DNA of 64,000 bases from Schmidtea polychroa (Eukaryota): positions 242,420,001-242,484,000 of the forward strand of contig CM097885.1 in assembly GCA_044892525.1 (NCBI GenBank). The letters are read 5' to 3'. Below the pieces are notes generated by a model. The model had not been told where the DNA came from and made no database searches. It saw nothing but the letters and a program-made list of their open reading frames with translations. A program made the position numbers and the translations under genes. This document shows, in pieces, positions 39,255-63,459 of the stretch. Each line of letters opens with the position of its first letter. The first letter of the stretch is position 1.

Positions 39255-39521
39255 AATATGGAATTTCTGTCGAATAATGTGAATTAACCGGGATTATCGA
39301 TTTCAATTAGTGGGCGAATGCAAATTGACTAATGCCTATCGAATCTTATTATAAATCACGATTAGAAAATAATAGAATTAAAGATATAAATAAAGTAAAT
39401 AATAGGGAAATAGGATAAAAATAAAATAAATTATAACGATTTAAAAAGAAAAATGTTTAATGAAACAACCATTAATTAGCTGTATATTATTAAAAAAATT
39501 TTTTTTCTTTTCGCAATAGAC

Positions 39522-41707: not shown

Positions 41708-42825
41708 ATGGAAGAAGATACAGATAGCGACATCTCCAACTTCGAACGAATCACCGATATATTCAACCTCATAGTATTAGCAGCCATCTGTCAAGGACTA
41801 GTAAATCTCCTCAGAATCGCAGTAGCAGACTCATACCGAACAATTTACGAAGGAAACTTCATCAGAACCCAATCCACCCAATTCAGTAGCCGCTAATTAC
41901 AAGGAAGCGTAAGAAAAGAATCACGGATAAACCCCATCTCAGATCATCGAGTAAGTCAGGCGACGTATTATTTTCAGGAGACGAATTACAACAACTCAAA
42001 AGAGGACGATCTATTAAACATCAAAGAGGAATATCACAAGGAGCAAGAAGAACCAATCAAGTACCCATATTTGACCAAGAAAATCCCGGATATACCCCTA
42101 GTCGATCTCGAAGCAGAGAAAGTCTGTCCGATATCACTAATAGTTTAGCAACGTCAACCGAAGAATTATCAGCCCAAAGTTTAGTCACATCGTTAGATAA
42201 TTTAAAAGAAACAGACGAATCTAGAACACCAATCATGACGAATGTCGTAAAAACCGACGAGTATAAAGAGAAGTTCAGAGGAGAACCGTTCAATGGAAAT
42301 GCAAACAAGTTAGCAACGTTTATAACTAATTTTGAAGTTTATATCACGGTGTGTGGATGGACACCCGAAGCAATTAGCAAAAGGATGCCGTTGTTTTTGT
42401 GCGATAGCGCATTAGAAGTATATTTAGAAGCTAAAGAGAGAGATACGAAATTAGAGAAGTGGGAAGATATCAAAACATTCTTGAAGAAAACCTTCGGAGC
42501 CAGTAAGCCAATCAACCAGGCGTTGGGCGAACTAGCAAATAGGAAACAAAGAGCAAACGAATCGATAACATTATATGCCAGTGAATTACGGAGATTAGCG
42601 AAGAAAGCAATGAATGGAAAATTACCCGAGGAAAATTTGATCGGCTATTTCATAGAAGGATTACGCCGAGAAGAAGTAAGAGCCTCAGTAGGTTGTCAAA
42701 TGTGCAAAACGTTAGAGGAAGCCATAGATTGGGCTACAAGATGCGAGCTCCACCTTCCAGCTCAAATGAATATTATGCAAGAAGATGGGAGGAGAGCGAC
42801 AGCAACAATCAGGAACCGAAAATGA
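41708..42825 (+). CDS. gag: Gag N-terminal region and capsid domain (5' part disrupted)
   Basis: FNGNANKLATFITNFE..W..F..RKQRANESITLYASELRRLA..FIEGL fits a Ty3/gypsy capsid; the capsid frame is open from 41890, and an upstream ATG ORF at 41708-41896 is in another frame. Confidence 0.85.
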
Positions 42826-44807: not shown

Positions 44808-46030
44808 ATGATGTAGTCATGATGTACGATAAAATAATATTACGAGCGGAGGACGACACCTCGTTGAGCGAAATGGGTATGTGGGACGATCATCAGATAA
44901 TCAGGATAGTACCAATGGATGAATTTCGAACAAGAGACGTAACATATCAAAAAGAAATACGAGACCGGATGAAAACGTTATATCAAAAATCTACAGAAAT
45001 AATTGAAATTCACCAACAATGGTTAAAAGAAAAGGAACTACAAGGAAAAATCACGAAACTAAGTACCAGATCCTGCAGACGAACCCCATGGGAAAGAGTG
45101 TGGAATACAGAAAATAAGGAATGGGAAATCCGGAAAGGAATCTTCGTAGAAACAGACATTGGTGAGACAGGAAGTGAATCGGAGGAAGAAGAAGAGGAAC
45201 CTCCAGAATATGAAGAGGAAGCAAGGGGACAGACATCAGATGACGAAAGCGAGACGGACGTCACGTCAGAAAGCGAAAATGAAGCGAGACATATTCATGC
45301 AATGCGGAAAAAGGAACGTGAATATGCCGATATGGACGGCGAGGAAGCGATAAAAGCAAGAGAACGAGAAGAGAAAGAAAGATATAAACAATTAGGCGAT
45401 ATCTTAGCAATGGGAGCAAAAAATCAAAAACGCCAAGTAGTAGCATTGGCTAACATCATCTTAAAGACATCAGAGAACATCCACAATCTGAGAGGAATGG
45501 GAAAGGCAATAGAGGAATACCGGCAATATAATGAATGGTATCCAGAACAGCTAGAACAAATTATTCGAAAATGGAGAAATCAGGAATGGGCACAAGACAC
45601 CCAGGAGAGGTATCACATCCGAATCAAGTATCCGGACAAGAGCATCGAGGAACTAGAGGTGCATCCAACAACAAAGATTAGAGAATTAAAAAAGAAATTA
45701 GCATATGAAACTCCATTCCATCTGCAACTATTCGGAAAATCACTAGACGATAATGCAGACGTCGGAATAACACCCATGAGATTGGAAGAGACGAATGTGT
45801 TAACAATGGCGGAAACGTTGGGAAAACCGTTGAAAAGGAAAAGCAAAATTAATAAACCAACAAAAGGCAGTTTGAGTACTCCAAGTCCGAACAAAGCACC
45901 AAGTAAATCTAATGAAACTGAAGAAGTCGAAGAGATTATCCTCGAAGATAGCGACGATGAACCAGGAGAAAGATCACCGCTATTAGTGAGATGGCCGACA
46001 GGAGCCGAAATCATCAGATGGATCATGTAA
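44663..46030 (+). CDS. Polyprotein continuation: rest of Ubl2, acidic PPEY region, ubiquitin-like domain 3
   Basis: IRIKYPDKSIEELEVHPTTKIRELKKKL..LFGKSLDD aligns by eye to ubiquitin [36 protein letters not shown]; -1 shift from the previous ORF near 44770-44800. Confidence 0.75.
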   Translation: MENHKFDSQIWKVKRNPATEVRNNHMVTERRETTNKKKVRSESSDGMVDDVVMMYDKIILRAEDDTSLSEMGMWDDHQIIRIVPMDEFRTRDVTYQKEIRDRMKTLYQKSTEIIEIHQQWLKEKELQGKITKLSTRSCRRTPWERVWNTENKEWEIRKGIFVETDIGETGSESEEEEEEPPEYEEEARGQTSDDESETDVTSESENEARHIHAMRKKEREYADMDGEEAIKAREREEKERYKQLGDILAMGAKNQKRQVVALANIILKTSENIHNLRGMGKAIEEYRQYNEWYPEQLEQIIRKWRNQEWAQDTQERYHIRIKYPDKSIEELEVHPTTKIRELKKKLAYETPFHLQLFGKSLDDNADVGITPMRLEETNVLTMAETLGKPLKRKSKINKPTKGSLSTPSPNKAPSKSNETEEVEEIILEDSDDEPGERSPLLVRWPTGAEIIRWIM

Positions 46031-47470
46031 CGGAGGTACATATACGATCCGAGGCGAGGTGATATCAGGAGTAGTAGTGATTGAGTCCTATACGGTTGAA
46101 TTAAAAGAATACGAAGCGCAATTCGACGCAAATAATTATCAAATGAAGACCAACCCAGCATGTAGAGCTACGGAAAATGTATGCAAGACAGGAGTATCAA
46201 CTATAATCTATGAAGCTAATACCCAAAAATGCCGACTTCAACTGTTAAAAAGTGCTTTGTTTAACGAAGTAAAAGGAGAAATTTACGAGAACGAAAATGA
46301 CGAGGATGGAAACGAAAGAGTGAGAATGCGAAATGGAAAACCAATGCCACCATCTCCCAGAGAAAAAAGACTCTCAACGCAGAAAACACCAACAGCACTA
46401 ATCACCGACGATCCAGATCTAGGTATGAGATTTATCAATGAGAAAGAAACCACCAAATGCGACAGTATAGTATATAAAACCAATTACGCGGGTATCTATA
46501 TGTCGAGACAAATAATCGATAGAGCAGTGGGAAAGATAGCAACGGAGGACGTAAAACTATACTTATATGCAAATAATAAAATGGACTTTCTGTTTCATCG
46601 TGGCCAGACGACGTTGCAAAAAGTATATTACGATCTTATACAAAACGATTGTTCATTGAATAAAGAAATACTGAAAACAAAGCTGGCTATTGCGATAACG
46701 CACCCAGATAACACGATGCCATCACTCCCCTTACCAGATGGACATTTTGGTAGAATGGTAGGAGAAGTGATGTACACATACCAGTGTACCAAGACGTATG
46801 CACGAATGCCCGAAAAATCCACACTACCCGAAAAGAAATGTGCAAATGAATTAGAGATTCGTTATAAAGGACAAAATCGATTCGTCCAACCAGTCACCAG
46901 AATTATGAACCCAGTAGGCTTCTACCCAAATCTATTTAACTGTTCTAATGCGTACGGACCATTGTATGAAAGACCAGATGGAAAATGGGTAATGTTACCA
47001 GTAAAGTCTGTAACTGAGGAACCCAAAAAGTTCGGATTAATAGAACTCGCCACAGAGTTGGATTTCAAACCTATAGACGTGTCAAACGGTGGTATGTATT
47101 CGGCAGAAGATTTAGAAACGGCTCGGCTTAACGTATTATTCCCAGCAAGGCGAGAATCTATATTGTCGAACATGGTCACAATAACTGGGGGAACGAATTA
47201 CCAATCAGGCCCAAACTATGAACTACTGCTGTCACCAGACCATTTTCAACAAGCAACCTCAAATATGATGAAAGCAATGTGGGGAAGATTCTTAGTTTTT
47301 GGACAAATGATGGCCGGAATATTGGGGATCATACTCATAATTCAGATAGTCAGAGTAATACTAACACAAATGTTAGCTTGTTTTGATATATACAAGCGAG
47401 AAAAGAAAGTGAATTGGAAAATGATAGTAGGATTTCTACCATTCCTAGCTAAAACTATGGTGTTACATGG
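45990..47470 (+). CDS. env: Chuvirus-like (class III, gB-related) fusion glycoprotein domain, N-terminally truncated, in frame with pol
   Basis: Collinear motifs GSCNGGTY..GVVV, C..TENVC..STIIY, KLYLYANNKMDFL, LIQNDCSLNKEIL, GEVMYTYQC, CANEL..RFVQPVTRI, GGMYSAEDL..VLFPA and WGRFLVFGQMMAGILGIILII(TM), as recalled for chuvirus-type glycoproteins. Confidence 0.82.
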
Positions 47471-49805
47471 TCACTCAAAGGACATTCATCGAATAAAACG
47501 ATTGATTAAAATATTAACGAAGATTAAAGGAACCGACGAAGAAGTAGGCAGACGATTCCGGAAAGTAATGTACGATGAAGCAACAAGACGACAACTGAAA
47601 AAGAATAAGCCAAAATTTTTGGACCGATTCAGAAGTCAATCATCTAACAGCGATAGTGACGACGATGATAACGGGAACGATAAATGTCTATATCCAAACA
47701 GAAACCCAAACGAAAAACCAATGGAAACAGCACCATATTGGGAAAAGGAAAAGACAAACCCCTGGATCGCCAATGGAAGCTATATACCACCGGATATCGT
47801 GGGACCACAAGCCGCTTTGACCATGACACAAAATATGTATCCGCAATTACCGAGTCAACCCGGTATGCATTATATGCCAACGCGACGTACCAAAAGCGTA
47901 GATCAAGCAGATGACGTACGAACAATAGCAGCAATGAATTTACCTGGAGGTCCAGCAGTGACAGTCATGATTCAAATCAATGGTAAAGAAACCAATGCTA
48001 TGATAGACACAGGAGCTAATGTATCAGCGATAGCGATTAATCAAATTCCCAGTAAGCACTGGAAAGATATCGAATCAACAACAATCCACATCATAGCATG
48101 TAGTAAAGAAACAGTGGACGTGGTCGGAAGATGGTGGACTACATTGAGATACCAGGACAACGAAATTGAAACGTATTTGGCAGTAATACCAAAACTTAGC
48201 GTACCATGCATAATCGGAACGGATTTGATGCCAGAATTATTAAAAGAAGTGGTAATTGACTTAACAACCATGTGCTTAAAAGACAGAACAGGCAGAATAT
48301 GCAAAATGAATGCCATAATCAGATGTCCAGAGAAAATTGTGGTACCAGCAAAATCGCAGATGATTTGTCAAATAAAAGTGGATACGGGTATGGAAGGAGA
48401 AGTTATCTTTGAGCCAAGCAAATCATTCGAAAAGCGACGAGAGTTACCCCTCGCCAGAGAAATAATAACAATAAACCCAGAAGGGGTGATACCGATCAAC
48501 ATCACAAATTTTGAAGAGGAAGACAAAATCATCTACGAAAATGAAAGATTGGGAAAATTAACTCCAATGATCAATATCGAATTACCAAAAGTGACCAACG
48601 AGATGACCAAAGACGACGAATTATGGACAATCGACAGTACATTGTTAACGGATGCTGAAAGGAGAAAATTGCACCGATTATTAGTAGAATATAAAGATAT
48701 ATTCGCCATCTCAGATTTAGATTTGGGTACATGCGATGTTACCCTACATGCAATACCACTCATAGACGAAACCCCAATTGCATTGAGACCATACAAGCTA
48801 GCAGAAATGCAAAAAGAAATAGCCGAAGCAGAAGTACAAAAAATGTTAGACGCAAAAGTGATCGAACCAAGTTGCTCACCTTGGCAATTCCCAGTGGTCA
48901 TGGTGAAAAAGAAAGATGGCACCCAACGATTCTGTATCGATTATCGAAAGTTAAACGCAGTAACCAAGAGAGATACCTATCCATTGCCGGACATCAATGA
49001 AATGTTACTCATGTTGCAAGAGGCAGCATATTTTACTTCTTTAGATTTAAAAAGTGGATACTGGCAGATTAAAGTCAAAGATGAGGACAAAGAGAAAACA
49101 GCTTTCACGTTGGGACGAGATCTATATCAGTTCAGAAAAATGCCATTCGGACTGACCAACGCACCAGCATCATTTCAAAGGTGTATGAACTTTGTCACTC
49201 ATGGAATCAAACAATGTATGGTATATATTGATGATTTGTTAATCTATTCAGCGACATTTGAACAACATCTGGAGGATATCCGAAACGTATTTATTAGATT
49301 AAGACAATGGAAACTCAAGCTCAAACCCTCAAAATGCGATTGGGCAAAGGAAAAAGTCACGTTTTTAGGACACATAGTGTCAGCTAAAGGAAAGGAGCCA
49401 GATCCAAGAAACATTGAGAAAATAAAAACATGTCCAGCACCGAAAACTGTCACCCAAGTTCAGGAATTTCTAGGATTATGCGGATACTACCGCAAATTTA
49501 TCAAAAATTATGCAGGAATTGCAAAACCAATCCAGGAATTAGTAAAGAAAGACATTTCGTTCATTTGGGAAAAGGAACAACAAGAGGCGTTTGAAACGCT
49601 GAGAGACAAACTAATCGAAGCACCAATCCTCGTACACCCAGATTTCAAGAAGCCATTTCTATTAGCAACGGATGCAAGCGGGTACGCGGCAGGCGCGATT
49701 CTGGGACAATTAGACGACGAAGGTAAAGAGAGAGTAATCGGGTATTACAGTCGAACATTCAAAAAGCACGAGAAGAACTATTCGGTAACAGAACGAGAAG
49801 CATAG
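46059..49805 (+). CDS. pol: Env-PR-RT-RNaseH(5' part) continuous ORF ending at a premature TAG
   Basis: Protease IDTGAN at 48003-48020; RT PWQFPVVMVKKKDG..RFCIDYRKLN, MPFGLTNAPASFQR, YIDD at 49224; RNaseH LATDASG..ERE; TAG at 49803 replaces L of EREALA. Confidence 0.97.
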   Translation: MISGVVVIESYTVELKEYEAQFDANNYQMKTNPACRATENVCKTGVSTIIYEANTQKCRLQLLKSALFNEVKGEIYENENDEDGNERVRMRNGKPMPPSPREKRLSTQKTPTALITDDPDLGMRFINEKETTKCDSIVYKTNYAGIYMSRQIIDRAVGKIATEDVKLYLYANNKMDFLFHRGQTTLQKVYYDLIQNDCSLNKEILKTKLAIAITHPDNTMPSLPLPDGHFGRMVGEVMYTYQCTKTYARMPEKSTLPEKKCANELEIRYKGQNRFVQPVTRIMNPVGFYPNLFNCSNAYGPLYERPDGKWVMLPVKSVTEEPKKFGLIELATELDFKPIDVSNGGMYSAEDLETARLNVLFPARRESILSNMVTITGGTNYQSGPNYELLLSPDHFQQATSNMMKAMWGRFLVFGQMMAGILGIILIIQIVRVILTQMLACFDIYKREKKVNWKMIVGFLPFLAKTMVLHGHSKDIHRIKRLIKILTKIKGTDEEVGRRFRKVMYDEATRRQLKKNKPKFLDRFRSQSSNSDSDDDDNGNDKCLYPNRNPNEKPMETAPYWEKEKTNPWIANGSYIPPDIVGPQAALTMTQNMYPQLPSQPGMHYMPTRRTKSVDQADDVRTIAAMNLPGGPAVTVMIQINGKETNAMIDTGANVSAIAINQIPSKHWKDIESTTIHIIACSKETVDVVGRWWTTLRYQDNEIETYLAVIPKLSVPCIIGTDLMPELLKEVVIDLTTMCLKDRTGRICKMNAIIRCPEKIVVPAKSQMICQIKVDTGMEGEVIFEPSKSFEKRRELPLAREIITINPEGVIPINITNFEEEDKIIYENERLGKLTPMINIELPKVTNEMTKDDELWTIDSTLLTDAERRKLHRLLVEYKDIFAISDLDLGTCDVTLHAIPLIDETPIALRPYKLAEMQKEIAEAEVQKMLDAKVIEPSCSPWQFPVVMVKKKDGTQRFCIDYRKLNAVTKRDTYPLPDINEMLLMLQEAAYFTSLDLKSGYWQIKVKDEDKEKTAFTLGRDLYQFRKMPFGLTNAPASFQRCMNFVTHGIKQCMVYIDDLLIYSATFEQHLEDIRNVFIRLRQWKLKLKPSKCDWAKEKVTFLGHIVSAKGKEPDPRNIEKIKTCPAPKTVTQVQEFLGLCGYYRKFIKNYAGIAKPIQELVKKDISFIWEKEQQEAFETLRDKLIEAPILVHPDFKKPFLLATDASGYAAGAILGQLDDEGKERVIGYYSRTFKKHEKNYSVTEREA

Positions 49806-50950
49806 GCTATAATACAAGCTATCAAACACTTCCGATATTTACTATGGGGACATGAGATATGTATAACCACAGATCACCAACCATTAGTGTGGTTAGGGCA
49901 ACATAAAGAAGCGTCCAGTAGACTGATGAGATGGGCCATGCAATTGCAAGAATACTCCCCATTTATAAAATTCAAAGCGGGAAGAGCAAATGCCAACGCC
50001 GATTGTATGTCAAGATTTATTTTTCCAGATTTGGTGGATTCAGAAATGCAACGCATATGCTTAATAGTAGCGGAAGATTTAGATTTCTGTCAATTGCGAA
50101 AGGACCAACAAGAGGACGCAGAATTAAAACAAATTATCGATTATGTAAAAACCGGAAAGACGGAGGTATATGCGAAAGATCAAAAATTAAAAGAACATAT
50201 GGATAAACACCGACACCGATATATTATAGAGAAAGATTGGTTGCTGATAATGGATGGAGAAAAACGATTAATGTGTATACCGGAAAACCGACGAAAAGAG
50301 TTACTAACGCAATATCACGATGGGAGATTGGGAGGACATATGTCATCAAAAAAGACGTTAGCAAGAATGAAACAGAAATATTTTTGGCCAACCCTAACGG
50401 AAGACGTAACCGAATGGGTGAAAAACTGCCTAACCTGTGCAACAAGGAAAAACACTGGATCGAAATGGAAAGCACCTTTGACGCCAATGCCGGTACCAAT
50501 AGAGCCGATGACAATGATATCAATGGACGTAGTTGGTCCATTACCGGAATCGGATAGAGGAAACGTTTATATTTTAGTGATTACAGACTTTCTCACGAAA
50601 TTTCCAGAAGCATTCGCGATGCCAGACCAAAAAGCTAAAACAATCGCAAAAATCTTAGTCGAAGAGATATGTTGCCGTTACGGAACACCGAAGCAAATCT
50701 TGACTGATCAAGGAACTAATTTTATGAGTGAGATAATGAGCTAAGTAACAAACTATTTCAAAATCGCAAAACTAAGAACATCTCCATATCACCCTCAAAC
50801 CAATGGGATGACGGAAAGATTTAATGGAACACTTATACAAATGTTATCAAACTACGTCGATCGTCACCAACGAGATTGGGATGAATACATAAATATATGT
50901 CTTATGGCTTACAGAATGTCAATTCATGCATCAACGAAAATGAGCCCATG
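49806..50950 (+). CDS. pol: RNaseH 3' part and integrase HHCC + DDE core (internal TAA at 50742, small deletion near 50949)
   Basis: TDHQPL; H-x6-H..C-x2-C (HDGRLGGH..CLTC); MDVVGP, TDQGTNF, GMTERFN; the frame continues past the stop into TSPYHPQTNG. Confidence 0.95.
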
Positions 50951-53900
50951 AGAGAGTGCAACATGCCAATGGACCTGGAATACCAACCACCGATATCGCA
51001 ATACATGGAGATAGATGATTATGTTACGAAATTCAAGGAAAGAATGCAGGAGATTTGGGAAACTGCGGGATTAAATATCAAGTTCTACCAGGAAAGTTAT
51101 AAAGATTTACACGATCGAAAGAAAAACGTGAAGCAACATACGTTTCAAACAGGCGATTGGGTGATGATCGAGACCCCAGAATTAATTCCCGGAACCACAA
51201 GAAAGTTACAACGGAACGGAAAAGGGCCATATGAGATCTTGTTCGTAGGCGAAACCAATGTAAGAGTAAAATTGGTAAATAATCCATTCACCAGGCCAAT
51301 ATACGTAAACGTGGCACGATGCAAATCAATTCCAAAAACAGCCACCAGTCAACCAGAAGGCCGTACATTAACCACACGTTCGCAAACCTACAGAATGAAC
51401 ATGATGCAACAACTCGCAGAACCTATCACTGGACGATTGGGCATACAACCATCGGAAGCCGAAAAAATCGTACGAGAGGTAAAGATAAAATTACCCGGAT
51501 GGGCAAAAGATCGATTAGATTTCGAAATATTAGGAGGATTATTGACGATGATCGAAAACTATGCAAACAGAGAGAGGACACATCCGTTATTGCGAGTAGT
51601 TAAAAGTCAATGGCCAATATTATTTACAATAACAGATCATTATGGAGACACACCATTACACAAACTCATGAAAGTAGGTAACAACGAGCAAATACTAGAA
51701 ACAATAGAAGTATTTCACGACTGCAAGCGATCAACAGAACAAGAAAACAACCAAGGCTACACACCATTAATGATAGCAGCAAACAGAGGCAAAACAAAAG
51801 ACATTATAACCGCATTACTTGATACTGGATCAAAAATAACTACACAAGACCACGAGCGGAAAAACGCACTACATCATGCTATCGAAGGGAAAAGTACCGA
51901 GGCGTTCACGTTGTTGATGGAACTACTATCATATGAGGACAATCGAGAAGTCGGAAACATGTATGATGGATTATTAACAGCGATCAAAGAGAAACTGACA
52001 ACAATTACCGGAGTATTAATCACTTGGAGAAACCCAATTAAAAATAATTATATGGTCAACGTAAACGAAGCATTCACGAGAGGAGAGAACACGCTTATGA
52101 GAGAAGCTATGAAAGGACATCATTTATTCGAAATCCCGAATCAATTACTAGAACGAGGAATAACCTTCACAAATCATAAGGATGAGCAGTTATTAAAAAA
52201 GCGAATTGACACATTCGAAAAATCAATATTCCAATTCATTACTCAGGTACGAAATAAATATTGGGAAACGGTAAGTGTGTTATACATGATGGACACGATG
52301 AACAACATCCGCGAGAATTACCTAGATATTATCCAAATACTTACCGCAGAGGAACGAATCAATAATCCAACCGGAAAGAAAATGAAAATAAGGCATGGGA
52401 AATCAAGAGAACCAAAGTCGCAAACGAACCAAACGATCGCAAATAAAGTCATCGAAACAAAATCAATGAGTGTAGATCAAAGAGCAATAATATGCAAAGC
52501 GAAAGAAGTGTTCTTTGAGGAAATGCTAGAGCTCTCAGATGAAATAATATTATCAGAAATAATAAAAACCGTGCATACATATGCAAGAGATCAAACAACG
52601 AATTTGGACATCGGTAAAATCAAAACCTTCTTGCCCCGAGCATTTACGATGGTAACGAAGGATTTCAGAACACCACTACAACAGGCAATATTAGCAGCGA
52701 AAGAAAATAGAGCAATAACGATCATGAGAATCCTTAGGGATATGGGCGAGGAAACCAACACGAAAAATGAACAAGGCGAAACCGCCATGATGTATGCAGC
52801 TATAACGAAAATACACCCAAAAACCCTCCACATACTACATCAATCAGGATCGAGACTAGACGAAAAGTCAAACGAAGGGAACTCCACTATGGACTGGGCA
52901 ACCATACAGCCTAATTTAGAAATGATCAGATTTATTTGCAAAAATGCGACAAGAGAAGAAGTTGAAAATATATGCAAAAACACAGCTCAATTTCAATGGA
53001 ATACGGTACGGAAAAATCTAGAAGCAATGAAATTATTATTAACATGGAGAGTACCACAAAATAATAAATATGCGATAAATGTAAACGAATTCTACGAAAA
53101 CGGAGAAAACGCGATGGTAAAGAATACATTAACTAAAGGGGGGACACCAAAAATTATTTTAATAGTATTAAACAGAGAAGACCTCAAATTCACGCAAAAT
53201 CAGAACGAGCAACAACGAATTGGAAAACATCGTCGTATTCAATTGAGAGAATTAGTCAAAGAATGGAATAGAAAGAGACATGCTGCAACGGGTAGAAAAG
53301 AGTTTGAATTCGAAGCAAAATTAGCAAGGAACAGAGTGTTAACAGCATATCGCAGATTATTGAACGATATAAATGTCGAGGACGACATTTTAAACGACAG
53401 CGGGGGAGATAAACACGATGACAATGACGGAAAAGGCCGAAAGGAGGATAAAGGGAAAAGAGAACCGGAAGAGGATAAACCGGAAAACAAGGATTCGGGT
53501 ACGAGAAGAGAGGGAAACAGCCCGGGAACCAAGACCAAAGAGGAGGAAAAACCGAATAATGGAAAACAGAGGGTATGCCTACCTTTCACTAACAAAGAAA
53601 TAGAAACAAATATGATCATAATGATAATCATGCTAACCATGATAGAGTTAGTAACAGCTCATGGAGGGACGAGAACGATAAAAGAAACCAAAGAAGCGGA
53701 GAATCAAGATAGCAAAGAGGAAGAACTAAAACAAGAAAAGAAAAAGCAAGCACAAGAGCAGCAGTGGGATTTAAAGGAAGAATGGGGCCTAAAGAAAAGG
53801 TGCATACTAGGAAGATGTATGTCTAGAGCGTATCAGAGATTAGTACTGATAAATGAGGACACAGAACCGATAACAGAAGTAAGAATACAAGAAGTATACC

Positions 53901-54613
53901 GAAATCGAGACGGGAAGAGAATAACGAACGTTAAAGGAAAAGAGGTGCACCTAGGAAAAGGTGGTGAAGTAGTAATAACGCAGCTCCAACCAAGAAAAGA
54001 ACACAAAGTCTGTATTTCAAGATTAGGACCAGGTGAGAGATGCCATCAATATGTGACGCAGCAGCAGCCCCCGAAAGAATACACGGTTTGTATCTGGAGG
54101 AACGAATCAAAAAGGGAATGCCGACGATACCCGGGGAAAAGAGGGAAGAAAAGAAAAAACCACGACGAAAAGGACGAAGGAGGAAAGCACAAGAAAACCG
54201 GCGAGGAAGCTCAGGACAACTATGTTTCGGAGGAAGAGATGGGAAAAATACAAAAGATGGCAAAGGAGGGTATGAACGAGGAAATAGCAAGAATACGAGA
54301 GATGATGAAAGGAAATGGCAAAAGAGGAAACGAGAAAAGTACAGAAGCGATATCAACATTAACAAACAAGGAAAAACCAGAGAGTATAAGCGTGAAGCAG
54401 ATGATGTGGATCAGCGGGATAATAATAACAGGGGCATTCCTAATCATAACGGGGGGAACAATAAAAATAATTAAAGATAAACGACATCGCGGAGAACTAG
54501 AGATGACCCGAATCAGAAATTTCCAACATCGAGTGAAACGACCAAGTGATATCAAACAAGAACAGTGGGTGGAGGCCTGGAACGCTCAGCGCCCTCCAAA
54601 CTCACGTATATAG
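50897..54613 (+). CDS. Integrase C-terminus (GPY) fused to two ankyrin-repeat modules, a signal-peptide-like segment, an FN3-like domain and a C-terminal TM
   Basis: KGPYEI; GDTPLH, GYTPLMIAA, KNALHHA (51632-52160); RTPLQQA, GETAMMYAA, GNSTMDWA (52655-53180); MIIMIIMLTMIELVTA (53612); VVITQLQPRKEHKVCI; MMWISGIIITGAFLIITGGTI (54401). Confidence 0.88.
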   Translation: MSYGLQNVNSCINENEPMRECNMPMDLEYQPPISQYMEIDDYVTKFKERMQEIWETAGLNIKFYQESYKDLHDRKKNVKQHTFQTGDWVMIETPELIPGTTRKLQRNGKGPYEILFVGETNVRVKLVNNPFTRPIYVNVARCKSIPKTATSQPEGRTLTTRSQTYRMNMMQQLAEPITGRLGIQPSEAEKIVREVKIKLPGWAKDRLDFEILGGLLTMIENYANRERTHPLLRVVKSQWPILFTITDHYGDTPLHKLMKVGNNEQILETIEVFHDCKRSTEQENNQGYTPLMIAANRGKTKDIITALLDTGSKITTQDHERKNALHHAIEGKSTEAFTLLMELLSYEDNREVGNMYDGLLTAIKEKLTTITGVLITWRNPIKNNYMVNVNEAFTRGENTLMREAMKGHHLFEIPNQLLERGITFTNHKDEQLLKKRIDTFEKSIFQFITQVRNKYWETVSVLYMMDTMNNIRENYLDIIQILTAEERINNPTGKKMKIRHGKSREPKSQTNQTIANKVIETKSMSVDQRAIICKAKEVFFEEMLELSDEIILSEIIKTVHTYARDQTTNLDIGKIKTFLPRAFTMVTKDFRTPLQQAILAAKENRAITIMRILRDMGEETNTKNEQGETAMMYAAITKIHPKTLHILHQSGSRLDEKSNEGNSTMDWATIQPNLEMIRFICKNATREEVENICKNTAQFQWNTVRKNLEAMKLLLTWRVPQNNKYAINVNEFYENGENAMVKNTLTKGGTPKIILIVLNREDLKFTQNQNEQQRIGKHRRIQLRELVKEWNRKRHAATGRKEFEFEAKLARNRVLTAYRRLLNDINVEDDILNDSGGDKHDDNDGKGRKEDKGKREPEEDKPENKDSGTRREGNSPGTKTKEEEKPNNGKQRVCLPFTNKEIETNMIIMIIMLTMIELVTAHGGTRTIKETKEAENQDSKEEELKQEKKKQAQEQQWDLKEEWGLKKRCILGRCMSRAYQRLVLINEDTEPITEVRIQEVYRNRDGKRITNVKGKEVHLGKGGEVVITQLQPRKEHKVCISRLGPGERCHQYVTQQQPPKEYTVCIWRNESKRECRRYPGKRGKKRKNHDEKDEGGKHKKTGEEAQDNYVSEEEMGKIQKMAKEGMNEEIARIREMMKGNGKRGNEKSTEAISTLTNKEKPESISVKQMMWISGIIITGAFLIITGGTIKIIKDKRHRGELEMTRIRNFQHRVKRPSDIKQEQWVEAWNAQRPPNSRI

Positions 54614-54773
54614 AAAGGAATATGACTGTATATAATTGTAAAAAGTAAGTATATCTTATGTATATAACAGTACTATATCTTTATATAAGCGCGGTATCAA
54701 TATTATACAATAACGGGAATCATAAAATAAAATTAAATTTAGATAAGAGTTGAAAAGTGTATATAAATTAAGA

Positions 54774-55133
54774 ATGGAGCAAGGAAATAACGAAATGAAC
54801 CACAACACAGTAACCGAAGAATTATGGAAGCAACAATGTGCCGTATTAGCACAATTAGTGTCTAATTTGCAAGAACAAGGATTGACGATGCAAAAGAACC
54901 TAATCGAGAGTATGAACAGAGGATTTAGTTATTTGAAGATAATTGAAGACCAGAGGTTAAAAATCGAACAAATGCAAAGAGAAATAGAGAGGATAACCCA
55001 ATATAGCCGAAGACAGGAAATCGAATTGGACAGAATGATGGAGGAAGCAGAACAGACAGAAATAGAAGACTGGTCAGAATGGCTTATGAGTAGAGAGGAG
55101 GGCGGACACGAAGCCGACTCTTCCGAACCATAA
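54774..55133 (+). CDS. Accessory coiled-coil ORF A (about 119 aa)
   Basis: ATG at 54774, heptad-like Q/E/L pattern, acidic W-containing C-terminus, same codon style as the polyprotein. Confidence 0.65.
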   Translation: MEQGNNEMNHNTVTEELWKQQCAVLAQLVSNLQEQGLTMQKNLIESMNRGFSYLKIIEDQRLKIEQMQREIERITQYSRRQEIELDRMMEEAEQTEIEDWSEWLMSREEGGHEADSSEP

Positions 55134-55218
55134 ACCAAACCTAGCTTAAAATGTAAATAATTGTAAATAAAATATCGAACCTGTATCGATAAGAACTATA
55201 TGTATATATAATTATAGA

Positions 55219-56607
55219 ATGGATAAACGACAAAGAGAAGAGTTCAGAGAAATTGTCGAACAAGTCCGAAAATCTACAACGATCAGAGTACACAAACATG
55301 TTATGTGCGGAATATGTGAAAAGTTGCTAAAAGAACCCCACCAAACCCTATGTGGATGCAGATTATGTAAGGAATGTATCAGTGAAGCAATAAAGAATAG
55401 ACCACAGTGGTGCCCGGTGTGTAAAGAGACACTAATATCGAGTTTAGAAGACACTAACGAGGATAAAGCCGCAGTGAAAGACATGTTAAACACCAATCTG
55501 GGATGCAAAAATACCCCATGCGAATGGAAAGGAGTAATATGGAAAGTAGTGCAACATATGGGAGAATGTATGTACAGAATCGGCCAGTGTGAAAGGTGCC
55601 ATAAAACCATTCGAGCAAGCGAAGAAAAAGAGCATCAAAGCCAGTGTGAAGAGAGACTAGAAAGATGTAAACATTGTGGAGAAATAGATACGTGGAAAAA
55701 TCTCACCAGCAAACATCACAATGTCCAAGAGGAAAAGGTATGTGCAGAGTTCAGTGGGGAATGCCCGAACGGATGTGAGGAAGGGAGAATAATAAAAATA
55801 GCCCAGCACCTAAAAGAATGTGAGAAGAAAAGAATGATATGTGTACTAGGTAAATGGGGCTGTCAGAAACTACTACACCGAGGAGAGTTACCACATCATT
55901 TAGTAGAAAATGCTTCAACTCACGCAGAAAGGTGGTCGACTGCGCTACAAGAAAGTGAAGAGAAAGTAAAACAAATGGAGATAGAGATAACATCGTTGAA
56001 AGTGTTAGTCAAAGAACTACTAGAAGAAAGAGAAGCGTTCGAAGAAGCCCGAGCTAACATAAAGATGCAAATAAATCGTATAGAAATCAGCAATAATCAG
56101 GCCAAGGTGCTACATCAAAAGATAACTGAGATAAATCTAAATGAAGTAATACCAACAGCACCCTACGTGTGGAAAATAACGGGAGTGAAAGAAAAAATAC
56201 GAAAAGCCAAAACCGGAGAAGAGACAAAAATAACGAGCCCCGCATTCCAGTCTTGGAAAAATGGGTACAAAATGAAAATGAAGATATATCCCAACGGGGA
56301 CGGAACCGGATTAGATACACCCTTTTCGGTTTTCTTTCTTTTATGCAAAGGAGAATACGACGAAATAATAGAATGGCCGTTCCAGGCGAAGATCGACATC
56401 GCACTAATGAATGACCGAAACATCCACGAACAAAGCTTCAAGACAACGGGAAACCAAATGTGTTACCAGAGACCTACGGAAGAAGAAGGATCAGCAACGG
56501 GAGCACCTACGTTCATCCTACAACAAAAAGTAGAGGATATGGCGAGAAATAACACAGTATATATCAAGATGACTGTGAGGAAAGAGGGGAAGGGTAGAAC
56601 GGAGTAA
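55219..56607 (+). CDS. TRAF: Full-length intronless TRAF-family protein (RING - TRAF zinc fingers - coiled coil - MATH)
   Basis: CGICEKLL..CGCRLCKEC..CPVC; repeated C-x2/3-C..H..C fingers; coiled coil; MATH YVWKI..SPAF..GYKMKMKIYPNGDG..KGEYD..WPF..YQRP..G.PTF. Confidence 0.96.
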   Translation: MDKRQREEFREIVEQVRKSTTIRVHKHVMCGICEKLLKEPHQTLCGCRLCKECISEAIKNRPQWCPVCKETLISSLEDTNEDKAAVKDMLNTNLGCKNTPCEWKGVIWKVVQHMGECMYRIGQCERCHKTIRASEEKEHQSQCEERLERCKHCGEIDTWKNLTSKHHNVQEEKVCAEFSGECPNGCEEGRIIKIAQHLKECEKKRMICVLGKWGCQKLLHRGELPHHLVENASTHAERWSTALQESEEKVKQMEIEITSLKVLVKELLEEREAFEEARANIKMQINRIEISNNQAKVLHQKITEINLNEVIPTAPYVWKITGVKEKIRKAKTGEETKITSPAFQSWKNGYKMKMKIYPNGDGTGLDTPFSVFFLLCKGEYDEIIEWPFQAKIDIALMNDRNIHEQSFKTTGNQMCYQRPTEEEGSATGAPTFILQQKVEDMARNNTVYIKMTVRKEGKGRTE

Positions 56608-56746
56608 CCCATCGAATAATGTTGTATATAATAATCTGTATATATCGGTGTATATATCCAATAAAATATTATATAATAATAGTATGAAAAACCCTAAATA
56701 CGAAAACCCAAAAATGATGCGAAAATTTCCGAAAAAACAGTAACTA

Positions 56747-57544
56747 ATGAATAAAAATTTTTCCATGATAAAAAGATTGATCGATATCTATGATTTAGAA
56801 ATGACACAAGAGAAAATAACCGAAACTACGATAGCCCCAACCAATATCAACAAGACACAAATTCCCCGAGAATATAACGAAAAATGGAACAAAGTAATGT
56901 TCCAACTAACTAATCTCACCCGAAATCACATCGAAGAAGCTAGAGAGGATGAGAACAGTAAATATCAATGGCTAATACACAATTTAAGAGAGGAAGCAGA
57001 AGCATGTAAAAGAGCATCAAAATGGGCGTCATTAGAAAATACCCGCCAAGAAGCGCACAGCCACTACTTAAAGCAGCTGGTGCAGGAAGCGAGAAAGAGG
57101 CTCACTGACGAAAACGCAAAACGCGAAGCGGAAAAGCAAATAGAAGGGAGGAGAATGATGCACTTATTGGCGGAAGCCAGGAAATGGAAAAGACGAAACA
57201 ATGAAATGGAAAAAGAGATGAAAGAATTGCCCATGAGACTCAGATATGAAAGTGAACAGGGAAAATGGGAGGAAAATTTAATAATAAAGGAAGAATTGAA
57301 ACGGTTGAGAAAGGTCGCCGCCCGTAGCCAAACTTGGCAAACAAAAGCCATGGAATTTGAGCGACATTTGGCAATAAAATGCGACATAAGAGAGCACGAG
57401 AACGCCGCAATGGAAGAGATGATAACCCAACAAGCAGGACGGGTTGTGGAATTAGTGAATCAGGTCGTAGAGATGAAAAGAGACCTTAATGGATTACAAG
57501 GATCGCTGGAACAAAGAAACATGGTCCTAGCTGGAAAAAAATAA
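56747..57544 (+). CDS. Accessory coiled-coil ORF B (265 aa)
   Basis: Uninterrupted E/K/R/A-rich helical ORF; no family recognised. Confidence 0.7.
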   Translation: MNKNFSMIKRLIDIYDLEMTQEKITETTIAPTNINKTQIPREYNEKWNKVMFQLTNLTRNHIEEAREDENSKYQWLIHNLREEAEACKRASKWASLENTRQEAHSHYLKQLVQEARKRLTDENAKREAEKQIEGRRMMHLLAEARKWKRRNNEMEKEMKELPMRLRYESEQGKWEENLIIKEELKRLRKVAARSQTWQTKAMEFERHLAIKCDIREHENAAMEEMITQQAGRVVELVNQVVEMKRDLNGLQGSLEQRNMVLAGKK

Positions 57545-57566
57545 AAAATTAGAAAACGAGAGGAAA

Positions 57567-57857
57567 ATGTATACCGAAAATATTAAAAACTTGGAAATAG
57601 AAATTGAAAAATGGAAGGGCGACGAGAAAATCAAGGCCCTAGACAGACAAATAGAGGCGAAAGACGAAGAGACAAGGTACCTCACCTATCTGCTCGACGA
57701 GGAATTGAATATCACTAGAGCATTAGGAGATGAAGTCCATGAGTTGAGAGCCCAAATTCCCCAATATTACATACCTTATGACCCTATTGCTATCCAGCTG
57801 CAGGCATCGGTCGAGAGCGATGAGGGATACGTGGGCCAAGAGGAAACCTTCGTATAA
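57567..57857 (+). CDS. Accessory coiled-coil ORF C (96 aa)
   Basis: Short helical ORF 22 nt after ORF B; no family recognised. Confidence 0.55.
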   Translation: MYTENIKNLEIEIEKWKGDEKIKALDRQIEAKDEETRYLTYLLDEELNITRALGDEVHELRAQIPQYYIPYDPIAIQLQASVESDEGYVGQEETFV

Positions 57858-57978
57858 AAGGGATCAAAAAGATAAAAAACTAAAAATCGGGACGTATATC
57901 CCAAACAAAAAAAAAAAAAATTAAAGTATTGTAAAAGTATTCAAGGGATTGTAACCCAAACTATTAAATTTTATATAA

Positions 57979-58743
57979 ATGTATATGTATAAGTCGCACT
58001 ATAGCGCACCATTAACTGTACATATTATAGATATGAAAATCGAGGAAATAATAGAAATTATGAGCGACGTAGAAGAGGGAGAGATTGAGGCAGAAACAAC
58101 AGAAACACAAACGTTAAAGGCCGAGTTACAGGAAGAGAAGTACGAAAACGAGAGACTTGTAAACAAATATATAGAAGACCGAAAAATGATTAAAATACTA
58201 AAGAAGGAGTGCGAAGTGCTAGGAGAAGTAAAAAGAGAAGCAGAAGAAGAAAATGAATGGCTACAAGAACAACGAACACGAGGAAGAAATTGGGAAAAGA
58301 TTGCAGAGGAACTATGGCAAGAGAGGGCAAGCTTCAAAGCAGAGGAAGTAATCCAAGACTATTGGAAAACAGAGGCGAAGGAACGCCAAATAACTATAAA
58401 TAAATTAAATCGACAATTGGAAGAAAAACAACGAGAAAGTGAGGAAATGAAGAAATGGATTCGCAAATACCAAGAGATCGAGAGAAAACAACAACAACAA
58501 CAACGAAACCTTTCGCAAGAAAACGAACAAGATTTCCTACAAATCGAACTAAAAAGGAATCTCGATAACAAACGGGAAGAAATTAGAAGACTGGAGAAGG
58601 AAATAAGGCGCATGAAAAGGGAGGCCCGTGAAAAGGACAGACAGTTGGAAATGCTGCCCGAGTTAAGACACAGGGTCATTAAAGCGGAATCCACCTTGAT
58701 GAGAATCGCCGAAAATAACCCAAAATCAGAACCATTAAATTAA
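57979..58743 (+). CDS. Accessory coiled-coil ORF D (254 aa; start may be ATG 58033)
   Basis: Long E/K/Q/R heptad-rich ORF; no family recognised. Confidence 0.7.
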   Translation: MYMYKSHYSAPLTVHIIDMKIEEIIEIMSDVEEGEIEAETTETQTLKAELQEEKYENERLVNKYIEDRKMIKILKKECEVLGEVKREAEEENEWLQEQRTRGRNWEKIAEELWQERASFKAEEVIQDYWKTEAKERQITINKLNRQLEEKQRESEEMKKWIRKYQEIERKQQQQQRNLSQENEQDFLQIELKRNLDNKREEIRRLEKEIRRMKREAREKDRQLEMLPELRHRVIKAESTLMRIAENNPKSEPLN

Positions 58744-58779
58744 GGGTCACTAAAACCAATTGTAAATAAAACATAATGA

Positions 58780-59448
58780 ATGTATAATAGTATCATGCGA
58801 GGCGAGATGATGATAACAATGATGGTATTGATGATCCTGATGGAGAGCAAACAAATAAACGCCCAACCGAAAATCGTACGAGATTACCGAAATCAAAATC
58901 AAGAACCTAAACAAGAATCCGGCCAATGTACATGCCCTATGACAGTAAAAACCCATATCATCCAAACCATTCAATCAACCCGATCACACATCAACAACAT
59001 CCAAACAATGTGTAAAAAGAATCCCATTTGTAAAATGATAAACCAACAAATCCTCGAACAAATCCAACAATTCGACCAGTTGGAACAACAAATACAACAG
59101 GAGAATTTTGGAAATCTTGTAGAAAAGCCAAAAACAATTCCCGAAATCAATGACACCCATTACCTCATATATATAGTGATCGCAGAGACCCTCCTCCTAT
59201 GTCTACCAATACTCATGAAAATTTACGAAGTTAGAAATAGATGTAGAATCTCGACATCAATAAGAGTAACCTCAAACCAGAATCCTCAAGAAGTGCCCCT
59301 GACAAATCGTAACCCAACCCCATTCCGACCTCGAACCCCGAGTAATCAACCAATCCAGCCGAATTCCTATAGTCAGACCTATCTCAACATCAATACCCAA
59401 ACCAACCAACAGCCGCCAGCAGAAGCATCAATGGTTAACAGTTCATAA
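58780..59448 (+). CDS. Accessory type-I membrane ORF E (signal, CxC, coiled coil, TM, P/N/Q-rich tail)
   Basis: MMITMMVLMILMESKQINA (58807), QCTCP, Q-rich coil, YLIYIVIAETLLLCLPILM (59161). Confidence 0.75.
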   Translation: MYNSIMRGEMMITMMVLMILMESKQINAQPKIVRDYRNQNQEPKQESGQCTCPMTVKTHIIQTIQSTRSHINNIQTMCKKNPICKMINQQILEQIQQFDQLEQQIQQENFGNLVEKPKTIPEINDTHYLIYIVIAETLLLCLPILMKIYEVRNRCRISTSIRVTSNQNPQEVPLTNRNPTPFRPRTPSNQPIQPNSYSQTYLNINTQTNQQPPAEASMVNSS

Positions 59449-59665
59449 ACTCTAAGTCAAACATTTGTGTTATTATATGTGGAAACTTTTATTGTATGTA
59501 CAAACTATCACCTTAAGTGATACTTGCTTGGTCTTGATTTGACCTATATCTTAGAATAAAATTTTTTTTTGTGGTATAATTGTTCGATATATCCTTTTTA
59601 TGAATGCATGAAGTAAGATAACTATGCAATTGCGGGACGCAATTTTGATGGGTCCCCGAGTGATT

Positions 59666-62600
59666 TGTTGGGCTGAGCCGAAGGGTAACTGGGAAATCAG
59701 GTTAAACTTAACTAAAATAAAATAAAAAATAAAATAAATAGATTGACGAAAAAAATAAAATAGAATATAAGAAAAAGCAATAATTAGAAAATAAGAATTA
59801 AAACAAAAAATATAAAAATAAGAACAATTAAATAGGACAATAGAATGACGAAAAATAACGTAAAATGTAGCAGATAACAAAGAAATTAAGGAAAATAAAT
59901 AAAAACACAATAAAAATAAAGAAAATAGGAAGAAATAACTCAAAAACAAGAAAAATAAATTAAATTAATAAAATAAGGCGGTACTCAATTCTGATTGGTC
60001 CGCATAAACGAAAAATACCTATATAAGTAAACCGCAAACTCACTATAGTCAATGTTAAAACCAAACCAATTACAGGTAAGAAATAGTATTAAGTAATGTT
60101 AAATGTTAAAACCAAACCAATTACAGTTACAGGTACTCGACTATCCAGACAATCAACCGACACTCAGACGACTATTAGGAACAGTTCTATCGACGATCCA
60201 TTCATATAACCGATTTGATTAGTGTTTATTTCGGCTCAGCCTTTGGAATCACCGAATTTTTCAAACGATAAGTAAGGATGTGTTGCTATTGTAAAATTTG
60301 GTAAATGTTTTTCAAGGATTAAATATCTTATTATATTAACGTAACATTTGAATAAAACTTCTCCATTCAATCTAAATTTTTTAATGGTAATATAGTTTCG
60401 TGAGTTAATTTAAAAGCTAATGATATATGAATATTTATGATATGTTTTGTCATCGAACGTATTGATTATGATAAAATTATATTTGAGAAACGTGGAGTTG
60501 AGGAGACCCACGCCATGGTGTGAGGAGCCTTCGGGAGCTCAGCCGGCGGGTGTGGATCTCTTCAATCACGCAGCTGACGTGGGCCGGAATGTGGGGGTTT
60601 CCTCACGGGTCCGTCGCTGAAGGAAGTAAAATGCTGCAAGCACGAGTTTAAAGTATAGAGGAATGCATTCCAATATTGAAAAGTAGAGTAATCTTAATTG
60701 AAAATGACTGAGGTGGCTACAAATTCTTATTAGACATCACACTCTGAAATTTCACCCGACATCAGAAATCGTATACTTGCATCAACTGACACTCTATCTT
60801 CTAGTGGCAAAATATTCTTCTATCAAAACTCACGTCAATAGAGAAACTGAGTACTAATATGTTCATTAAGTGTAAAATCATAATATAGGAAGCATAAACG
60901 AAGATTTATTCAACAAAAATTTTAGTGCGAATATATTTTTCAACAAACCCTTTAATTTTTTTTCATTTCTCCTGAAAATCTACAATAGTGGCAACATGAA
61001 GTTCTTTCTGTAAACGACACTTTCGACCAATATAGGTGAAACTCTTTTGAATGAGTTGCTGTAAATATCCACGAAATCATAACATCCAAATTGAAAACGG
61101 AGGAAACTGCACATCATGAGAATAAATTTCAACGTCCATGCTCGATGAGAACTAATCATAGGTAGCATATTGAATAAACGAAATAAATCTAACTCGCTGT
61201 GTGAGATGATCAGCTGTAACCCTTTAACGTAGATAATGAGAGAGCATACGAGACCAGTCACACGCATTACTACACATAAATACACGCTTACATATGCCAC
61301 ATGCATTATTTTCCCAGTCAGCTAATGACGCTGAGAATAAAAGTTGAAGTATACGCACACGACGTAATTAACTCCGATCGATATCTAACTTTCAGATTCA
61401 TGTTGTTAATGATTTCTACGAGTGAGCTATGCATTACCGGATGACTGTTATCAATTAGCTAGATTTTATAGATTAATTGCACAAGTAAATTCCATAACAA
61501 AAATGAATAGATCGATTTTTAGGATAGGAATAAAATTCTAATCATACTCGAATCCTTAAAAATCTAATGGTAGCACAGTGATTGAATAGGTTTTCGATTT
61601 TCATATACCAATATGAGTTACGATTTGAGGTAATTAATTTAAGGAGCATTCCCGCGGCACTAGAGAACTTTGTTTTTACGTTTTTAAAGATAAATATCTG
61701 TATTCGAAAAGTTATATGTAAAAATGAATATTAATTATTTAATTATGCAAACATTCTAATGTTTCCTAAACAATTTCTACGAAAACGATAACTCTAACGA
61801 TCACTGGGTCAATACATTTGCGAGTCATCTTTCCCCTAAATATTTGAGAATCTCAGATAACAATAGGTAACGAATATTCTAAGTATAATCATAAAATTTT
61901 GGCAAAGTATTAATCAGATGTTAATTTCTCTTGCAACCCCAAATAGACATCCGAGAATTCACTGAGTGCAATTATAAAACACTATTTCTAACGGAACCAT
62001 ATCATTGACCTTTTATCCATTTTACTTAATTTTTCGAAATTAATAAATGATCATGTCCCATGCTGGTTCAGTAGAAATCGCTGATCTTAATTCTTATTCT
62101 CATTGTTTTTTCTTTGTTACAGTTATCAAAAATGTTGCCAAGCTCGAAGCCGTCGCTCAAACCCTGTTTCTCCTGTGCCGACAAAAACACCGTAATCCGA
62201 GAATTACAGGCCCAGATCGGTCGATATAAAAAGAAGATCGACGATCTGGAAGGTACATGGTTTAGCCCAGTACAAATGAAGGAGGTACAAAAGAAATTGT
62301 ACCACAGCGAGCATTGTCGCGATGCTTTGATAAGCGAAAGTAGAGCTCAGCGTAGCCTAATCAAAGAGCAGTCCGAAGCTTTACATAAAGTTTACGTTCA
62401 AGCCGCGACAACCCGGAAGATCGTTAGTATCCCGATTAAAGAAGCGGACAATATCTTCCCCGTCCACCATGAACCTTCATTTAGTTCACCACCCTTATCA
62501 AAAAGATCTTGTCGTGAATGCGTGGAAGCCGACCTCTCCCCCAGGCCAACGGACGTACCTACTCCCGGCACCGGCAAGGTATTGCCATCAACCACGACGT

Positions 62601-63459
62601 CCTCAGAAATCTTGTCGGCCAACCCTTCGAAACCTAAACGTCGCCAATTATCCAGAGCGGAGCGTAAGAAGCGTCAACGTGAACGAGCAATCGTCAAACA
62701 ACGGGAACTATCTTCCAACCACCCAAGTACTTCGAATGATTCCCCCGTAACGATCGATCTAACTGTAGGGATCCCAGGGCGAATCATGTCTGCCGCTGGT
62801 GTGACGTGGGAGGAGAATGCCTCCGAGTTTTTTGATCTGGATGAACTATTGGCGGATGCAGAATGGGAGAAGTGAGAATCGCAACACAATACAACCGTGC
62901 AGAGTGTTAATGGACAAATAAACTATCATGACTCCTTTTCCTCTTAATCCATTTTCCACTAAGTGTACTCGTTATATAGTGCCATAATTATCTAGTGTAT
63001 TATGATAATAGAATAAAGAAATTTGTGGGTTATTTCTTGTGGTTGTTTTGATTTAAATAGTTGCTGGAAAGGTTCAGAGTAGTGTTCACAAAGTGATTCA
63101 TAAAGCGAGAGTAAATTTTGAGTTCGAGAGGCAATAGTCAATTTTGTGTCGAATTATGGGACAGGGTAGAGAGAGAATCTGATGGGGTAAACAGACGTAA
63201 GTCCTTCCATCGGCAGTCAGAAAGGGAAGTCGAGGCCTCAGTAAGGAGTAGTCCTAAGGTAGGGGCTCACCTGCTTACTGGAGTCTCGCCTGCATAGCAC
63301 ATTTCCAACGTGAAGCAATTCGCGGGTGCTATGTTGGAGGGTAAGTTGTGCGGGGTCCTGCTCCGGGTTGACACGGGCGTATGTAGCGTGATGATATGGG
63401 CACGCATCCCCTAGACAAAGACGTAGATTGAGCAGAGTCAACCGAGCGCTACCCCAGCA
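59666..63459 (+). repeat. 3' LTR (3,794 bp)
   Basis: Direct repeat of the 5' LTR, followed by ATAT. Confidence 0.98.
62132..62875 (+). CDS. LTR-encoded ORF, 3' LTR copy
   Basis: Same ORF as 37902-38645 with five amino-acid differences (R>K, G>S, S>P, A>G, W>R). Confidence 0.75.
   Translation: MLPSSKPSLKPCFSCADKNTVIRELQAQIGRYKKKIDDLEGTWFSPVQMKEVQKKLYHSEHCRDALISESRAQRSLIKEQSEALHKVYVQAATTRKIVSIPIKEADNIFPVHHEPSFSSPPLSKRSCRECVEADLSPRPTDVPTPGTGKVLPSTTTSSEILSANPSKPKRRQLSRAERKKRQRERAIVKQRELSSNHPSTSNDSPVTIDLTVGIPGRIMSAAGVTWEENASEFFDLDELLADAEWEK

Follow-up and report, generated by a model that had tools for sequence, protein, structure and literature searches.

The closest described relatives of the element studied here are the planarian Burro/GYPSM1 retroelements, which measure ~28 kb, have long terminal repeats (LTRs) of several kilobases, place env between gag and pol, and carry ankyrin, MATH/TRAF and RING cargo as well as accessory open reading frames (ORFs) (PMC6431247). 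The same traits are found in a giant LTR element, which we term family A, within a 64,000-nt stretch of Schmidtea polychroa DNA (contig CM097885.1, positions 242,420,001 to 242,484,000 of the forward strand; hereafter the window). In contrast to this element, the accessible description of Burro/GYPSM1 mentions no cis-acting signals in the spacers. How rows of accessory genes are expressed from retroelements of 28-35 kb is the question addressed here; one such gene has been reported, second-hand, to protect planarian stem cells. We find that the accessory spacers of two deeply diverged families share a selected 8-mer, TGTAHATA, which is anchored to the upstream stop codon.

Two further systems are comparable. 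The stability element of Rous sarcoma virus provides position-dependent, stop-proximal shielding from nonsense-mediated decay (NMD) (PMC4764554). As in the element described here, sites for an RNA-binding protein lie right behind a stop codon with kilobases of genes downstream and position matters, the long 3' untranslated region (UTR) being a predicted one in our case; unlike it, the viral element spans 400 nt and presents pyrimidine-rich PTBP1 sites behind one stop, whereas A-rich 8-mers lie here behind most internal stops. With ~48% A and 6-14% C, the spacers do not qualify as pyrimidine-rich PTBP1 sites. The 8-mer itself resembles the Pumilio response element, UGUANAUA (PMC7962487), in its exact consensus, sense strand, untranslated position, tandem copies, core with a tolerant position 5 and cognate host protein. 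It differs in lying between retroelement ORFs at a fixed distance from stops, and its binding and any repression through it are putative. Element class and motif have thus been known separately, while their combination with stop anchoring across deep divergence is apparently undescribed. The listings and abstract openings covered by our searches, on Burro elements and on Pumilio together with retrotransposon or viral RNA, contained no description of this combination; the two primary Burro papers (Grohme 2018, Lee 2026), which may describe Burro transcripts, fall outside that coverage.

The five spacers of the accessory region contain the following sites, with distances counted from the upstream stop codon.

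54614..54773, + strand: spacer S1, with sites at +14 (54627, kept in 19 of 21 copies), at +46 (54659, in 19 of 21) and 16 nt upstream of the ATG (54758, in 16 of 21)
55134..55218, + strand: spacer S2, with sites at +19 (55152, kept in 21 of 21 copies), at +29 (55162, in 19 of 21) and 18 nt upstream of the ATG (55201, in 18 of 21); acceptor-like end TTATAG
56608..56800, + strand: spacer S3, with sites at +16 (56623), +30 (56637) and +42 (56649), kept in 20, 21 and 17 of 21 copies
57858..58032, + strand: spacer S5, with a single site 16 nt before the ATG (58017), a stop-proximal site in 0 of 21 copies and a variable oligo(A) tract
58744..58794, + strand: spacer S6, with a site at +18 (58761), kept in 20 of 21 copies

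All 11 sites listed in the initial annotation are present on the + strand at the positions given there, spread over 4.1 kb. That annotation had counted them in about 600 nt of spacer with less than one expected and had left open whether the excess would outlast a shuffle test. Both the estimate and the excess hold up: the six gaps as first drawn (613 nt, 72-79% AT) contain 11 sites compared with 0.58 +/- 0.74 in per-spacer dinucleotide shuffles, none of 20,000 shuffles reaches 11, and the reverse strand of the same gaps contains zero. Five of the gaps are true inter-ORF spacers. The sixth, 57545-57566, is a frame break of the window copy, since 18 of 20 other copies have ORF3 and ORF4 joined in a single open frame. 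Copy comparison also places the conserved starts of ORF3 at 56801 and of ORF6 at 58795, and the ATG at 56684 was dropped as the start of ORF3. With these corrections, the family A spacers (664 nt) hold 11 sites against 0.57 expected (0/3,000 shuffles). Elsewhere on the + strand of the element, TGTAHATA occurs only once per LTR; there is none in the 12.4 kb of gag-env-pol and none in the 3.0 kb of non-coding internal leader.

The sites are anchored to the stop codon of the preceding ORF, a feature that had gone unnoticed in the initial annotation. The first strict site after the stop lies at +14, +19, +16 and +18 in family A and at +17, +18, +17, +19 and +18 in a second family (family B, described below). 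Thus, 9 of the 11 spacers in both families have a strict site within one 6-nt window from +14 to +19 (null 3.2; 0/2,000), as opposed to merely 3 of 11 sharing such a window when anchored to the downstream ATG. None of the 42 TGTA words in the 11 spacers starts at +1 to +13. The exceptions to the anchoring are S5 of family A, with nothing near the stop, and spacer 4 of family B, with near matches at +18 and +27. Behind ORF5, the stretch from stop to site varies by subfamily, but 20 of 21 copies hold the site at +16 to +23. Seven terminal ORFs from the two families, namely the last ORF, the pre-gag ORF and the LTR ORFs, have no stop-proximal site behind them; behind ORF6, TGTANATA occurs within 44 nt of the stop in 0 of 21 copies, and four of 21 carry it further on, at +49 to +56. 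Among 40 host 3' ends (20 G-protein-coupled receptor and 20 TRAF genes, the stop being the first in frame after the domain), the 8-mer is absent from the first 60 nt of all 40 and occurs once when the first 150 nt of each are taken (6,000 nt in all). The gap between stop and site corresponds to the length that a ribosome covers downstream of a stop codon, an indication that the sites act on translated RNA.

The sites are under purifying selection. Conservation across copies, proposed as a check in the initial annotation, was analyzed in the window and 20 family A copies picked from 150 matches to span 76-95% identity, one of them non-homologous across part of S1. Retention per site ranges from 16 to 21 of the 21 copies. 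Difference rates are 0.041 for the seven fixed positions, 0.099 for position 5 and 0.118 for other spacer positions (block permutation p=0.00035, an optimistic value since the copies are related and recombining). Variants common to at least two copies are present in 7/77 core columns versus 175/562 elsewhere in family A, and in 0/49 versus 91/597 in family B. Position 5 is tolerant, as in the Pumilio element: at two family A sites it alternates between T, C and A with the remainder of the site unchanged, site 55201 reading TGTATATA in 8 copies and TGTACATA in 10, and site 58017 reading TGTACATA in 14 and TGTAAATA in 6 of 21 copies. The 8-mer is a real, selected cis-signal, from which we infer the functions weighed below.

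Family B was found by MATH and BIR searches and is Burro1-like, with a 4,791-aa frame containing MATH and a separate BIR ORF. Burro1 proper has a BIR domain as well as MATH within the polyprotein, a combination that is present in family B and was not found in the 14 ORFs of the window, none of which gives a BIR or Bcl-2 Pfam match; family B fits Burro1 best. Its accessory proteins are 24-39% identical to those of family A, blastn between the two accessory regions returns a single 21-nt match, and the spacers are unalignable. The six family B spacers contain 7 sites (1, 2, 1, 0, 1 and 2 per spacer) compared with 0.70 expected (0/3,000 shuffles), and the gapped word TGTA.ATA ranks top among those common to both families. 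Each family B site is retained in 17/19 to 21/21 copies of a set made up of a reference and 20 copies from 150 BIR matches, of which one is partly deleted and one partly non-homologous. Searches for a third family gave no new accessory region at 20 loci upstream of diverged LTR-ORF matches (one being a family A fragment), 113 matches to the tandem-motif pattern versus 143 to a control pattern, and no candidate in a TRAF protein search at E<=1e-30. Four metagenome loci match at the integrase level only, and look-alike windows were not found in other genomes. Two smaller env-bearing families (7 of 11 loci examined) have zero strict stop-proximal sites and one near match at +21. The latter, TGTATAAA, follows the polyprotein stop of a compact element (L021:6196-6370). 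The single accessory ORF of this element is preceded by a T-rich TTTCAG acceptor and followed by an oligo(A) tract.

The Pumilio identity of the motif is well supported indirectly, by the top-ranking shared 8-mer with its free position 5, by conservation and by the canonical code of the host PUF protein. The eight repeats of the latter, read exon by exon (G000:C4 ~75.195-75.209 Mb), are SRQ, NYQ, CRQ, NHQ, CRQ, NYQ, SNE and NYQ and decode to UGUANAUA by the published recognition code (PMC8384837). Expression of a planarian Pumilio has been described in both stem cells and brain (PMC1896013). Taken as a Pumilio element in the initial annotation, the 8-mer keeps this identity, and its binding is a prediction; the sites are probably cytoplasmic PUF-type binding sites. 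One Pumilio exon, encoding repeats 3-4, occurs in two additional copies at a distance from the full gene (L094 and L095, G000:C4 ~88.41 and 88.55 Mb).

The spacers further carry features of splice acceptors. YAG is present in the last 9 nt before the ATG in 9 of 11 spacers (null 1.6), TTNYAG in 5 of 11 (null 0.09), and ahead of ORF5 and ORF6 some copies have TAG where others have CAG. In flatworms, the acceptor motif is UUNYAG and intergenic distances in operons reach up to 300 nt (PMC12582326); all 11 spacers are shorter than 200 nt. AATAAA and its variants are not enriched in the spacers, and the downstream flanks of internal AATAAA hexamers contain 24-36% T, compared with 46-54% for terminal and LTR signals. 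The hexamer at 59555, with 54% T in its downstream flank, is kept in 19 of 21 copies and may be the poly(A) signal shared by the accessory mRNAs. Together, these features suggest a nested set of leader-spliced mRNAs that run to a common 3' end and have predicted tails of 0.8-4.9 kb, in which 11, 8, 5, 2, 1 and 0 sites lie downstream of the successive stops from the polyprotein to the last ORF. None of the contig matches listed for runs X1, X2, X3, X5 and X6, which include a minority of those with loose ends and of which X1 and X6 are tentatively taken as RNA, contains a leader-acceptor joint, a spliced leader or a poly(A) end in a spacer; they count as evidence neither way. Run X3 shows a transposase adapter end.

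We propose that the stop-anchored sites are likely bound by host Pumilio on these nested mRNAs and would most likely protect them from NMD, a reading to which we assign a probability of about 0.38. A single leader from the LTR would be spliced onto the AG before each ATG, and every message would run to the shared 3' end, so that the downstream ORFs would form the 0.8-4.9 kb 3' UTR of the internal ORFs. Pumilio would then sit just outside the terminating ribosome, 14-19 nt behind the internal stop. A protein bound directly behind the stop could block UPF1, as PTBP1 does on the viral stability element, and each message would be spared the NMD that a very long 3' tail invites. Such a shield predicts a site behind every internal stop and none behind terminal stops, which matches the pattern seen. 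In its widest form, of which we are doubtful, the stop-anchored sites would make an NMD shield of a stem-cell repressor and allow one promoter to serve six or seven genes from nested RNAs, their expression being tied to Pumilio-rich stem cells.

Several points weigh against this proposal. We know of no case in which Pumilio blocks UPF1. A stop-proximal site is missing from S5 in all 21 copies even though 1.7 kb follow it downstream, spacer 4 of family B has near matches only, and the number of family B sites does not scale with downstream length. The RING ORF of family A has no site, though its nearest AATAAA is without a T-rich flank (22% T). The predicted unpaired probability of the 11 sites is 0.09 compared with a spacer mean of 0.19, the pairs being weak AU pairs, and position 5 is invariably A in family B. 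The comparison rests on two families, and transcript structure and Pumilio binding are both deduced from the DNA. Moreover, Pumilio is chiefly a repressor, which degrades its targets via CCR4-NOT (PMC7962487).

This last property underlies the alternative of graded repression, which is possible if tentative: Pumilio would deadenylate or silence the messages, so that damping of the replication genes would be strongest in Pumilio-rich stem and germ cells. The nested site counts, which fall from the polyprotein to the last ORF, agree with it, as do the known action of Pumilio (PMC7962487) and its presence in planarian stem cells (PMC1896013). Further, the family B ORF without a strict proximal site is the BIR ORF, the counterpart of which is described, at second hand, as stem-cell-protective (PMC13465017). 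For repression, however, any downstream site would do and a site behind nearly every internal stop is not needed, and selected self-repression in a selfish element requires an extra benefit. According to work on microRNAs, 3' UTR sites act best at least 15 nt from the stop and near the ends of the UTR, which we count in favor of repression.

Nuclear 3'-end signals are an unlikely explanation. Here, tandem UGUA, bound by CFIm25, and AAUAAA would direct cleavage within every spacer, and the following ORF would obtain a leader by cis-splicing or by spliced-leader trans-splicing, as in an operon. TGTA pairs 9-14 nt apart in most spacers, the conservation of TGTA also outside the 8-mer, the position of UGUA upstream of AAUAAA, a CFIm25 gene in the host, and the presence of AATAAA in 8 of the 11 spacers, with retention in 13-19 of 21 copies, all fit this scheme, as do the operon-like spacer lengths below 300 nt and the 5 of 11 flatworm-type acceptors. 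The stop codon, however, is invisible to nuclear processing, and CFIm25 is not known to read the last ATA of the 8-mer. The AATAAA hexamers noted in the initial annotation start at 55166 and 58765, one nucleotide from the positions given, and are part of a set that is not enriched (5 seen versus 6.1 expected); the internal hexamers have no U-rich flanks, and planarian poly(A) sites are reported, in the accessible text, as U-rich and without upstream UGUA, CFIm59/68 being undetected (PMC5068929). The poly(A) branch of that annotation is weakened accordingly.

Termination-reinitiation on one polycistronic RNA, with the sites passing ribosomes to the next ATG or blocking them, is improbable. Sites are found only where the next ORF follows within 51-193 nt, and many spacers have a second TGTA 14-18 nt upstream of the ATG (within one 6-nt window for 8 of 11; 27/2,000 shuffles); the conserved YAG with TAG/CAG interchange instead favors splicing, and we know of no PUF precedent for such control.

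The remaining two explanations are very improbable. Many Pumilio elements reside on one RNA in the long non-coding RNA NORAD, and a similar sponge, put forward in the initial annotation, or a condensate scaffold would be served by 11 sites in 4.1 kb and at least 150 copies scored per search; unlike NORAD, the element RNA is coding and its sites follow stops, an anchoring that a sponge neither predicts nor explains, and the 3 kb of non-coding internal leader is without a site. BURRO1 has been termed highly abundant (PMC8532177), in keeping with a sponge. DNA-level signals or an AT-repeat artefact, suggested by TATATA within TGTATATA and by the forkhead consensus GTAAATA in every family B site, are contradicted by the dinucleotide null and by selection on the sites. 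The TATA-like start sites that the initial annotation had held against its own proposal do not account for the pattern, as TATAWA is not enriched (13 versus 8.8; 4 versus 4.8) and position tracks the upstream stop rather than the downstream ATG; the forkhead reading was rejected since GTAAACA and reverse-strand forkhead words are absent from the 11 spacers.

If Pumilio binds, a host RNA-binding protein would set the fate of each message of the element. The shield, if true, would be the first case of a PUF protein protecting RNA from NMD, and repression, if true, would mean a retroelement wired, in a graded manner, under a stem-cell repressor.

The family A element in the window is young: its LTRs differ at 11 of 3,794 aligned nt, and a 4-bp ATAT target duplication flanks it. 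Many copies are present in the host genome (G000, 781 Mb), of which 40 of 443 candidates were scored in one search and 150 of 1,449 in another. In a Pfam scan of the 14 ORFs, gag, zinc knuckles, Monjiviricetes-type fusion glycoprotein, protease, reverse transcriptase, RNase H, integrase and ankyrin repeats appear in order, env (PF24664) thus preceding protease and reverse transcriptase, with RING and TRAF on separate ORFs. The layout is as follows.

35434..63459: giant LTR element, 28,026 bp, family A
35434..39229, + strand: 5' LTR (TG...CA), 3.8 kb
near 35790-35850: TATA-like box, putative short leader and putative CAG|GTAAG donor-like site in the 5' LTR
39522..40007, + strand: RING ORF upstream of gag, without stop-proximal TGTAHATA
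42235..54613, + strand: gag, fusion glycoprotein (Monjiviricetes-type), protease, reverse transcriptase, RNase H, integrase and ankyrin, in several pieces in the window copy; zero + strand TGTAHATA
54774..55133, + strand: accessory ORF1, 119 aa, no Pfam match, 33% identity to family B ORF1
55219..56607, + strand: TRAF-like ORF (RING, MATH), 462 aa
56801..57857, + strand: ORF3/4, ~351 aa in other copies, frame-broken at ~57545-57566 in the window copy
58033..58743, + strand: accessory ORF5, no Pfam match, 24% identity to family B ORF5
58795..59448, + strand: ORF6, last accessory ORF
59555..59560, + strand: AATAAA, candidate shared poly(A) signal
59666..63459, + strand: 3' LTR with a 247-aa ORF (62132-62875) that has no stop-proximal site

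The internal leader contains a 74-nt tandem repeat in three copies (40649-40871). In S1, a donor-like GTAAGT (54642-54650) is kept in 20 of 21 copies and could recruit U1 against cleavage or open a 3' UTR intron. S3 contains a short ORF from 56684 behind an AATAG-like acceptor (56680-56720); it has 10 codons in 13 of 20 other copies, and the position of its stop is kept in diverged subfamilies. An oligo(A) tract of highly variable length and start occupies the homologous spacer of both families (57907-57920; L040 ~8500-8545; L164 and L167 behind the BIR stop). In some family B copies, it displaces part of the site. The tract could have arisen by slippage, serve as a shield bound by PABP or derive from a captured poly(A) tail. 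Family A copies look recombinant along the accessory cassette, and ORF6 with the start of S6 (58744-59448 versus L004, L005, L013 and L017) shows subfamily divergence (0.26 at codon positions 1-2) far above that of the remaining accessory ORFs. Immediately upstream of the 3' LTR, the region at 59627-59665 around GCAATTGCGGGACGCAATT is nearly invariant across subfamilies and similar to its family B equivalent, and may be a polypurine tract or packaging signal.

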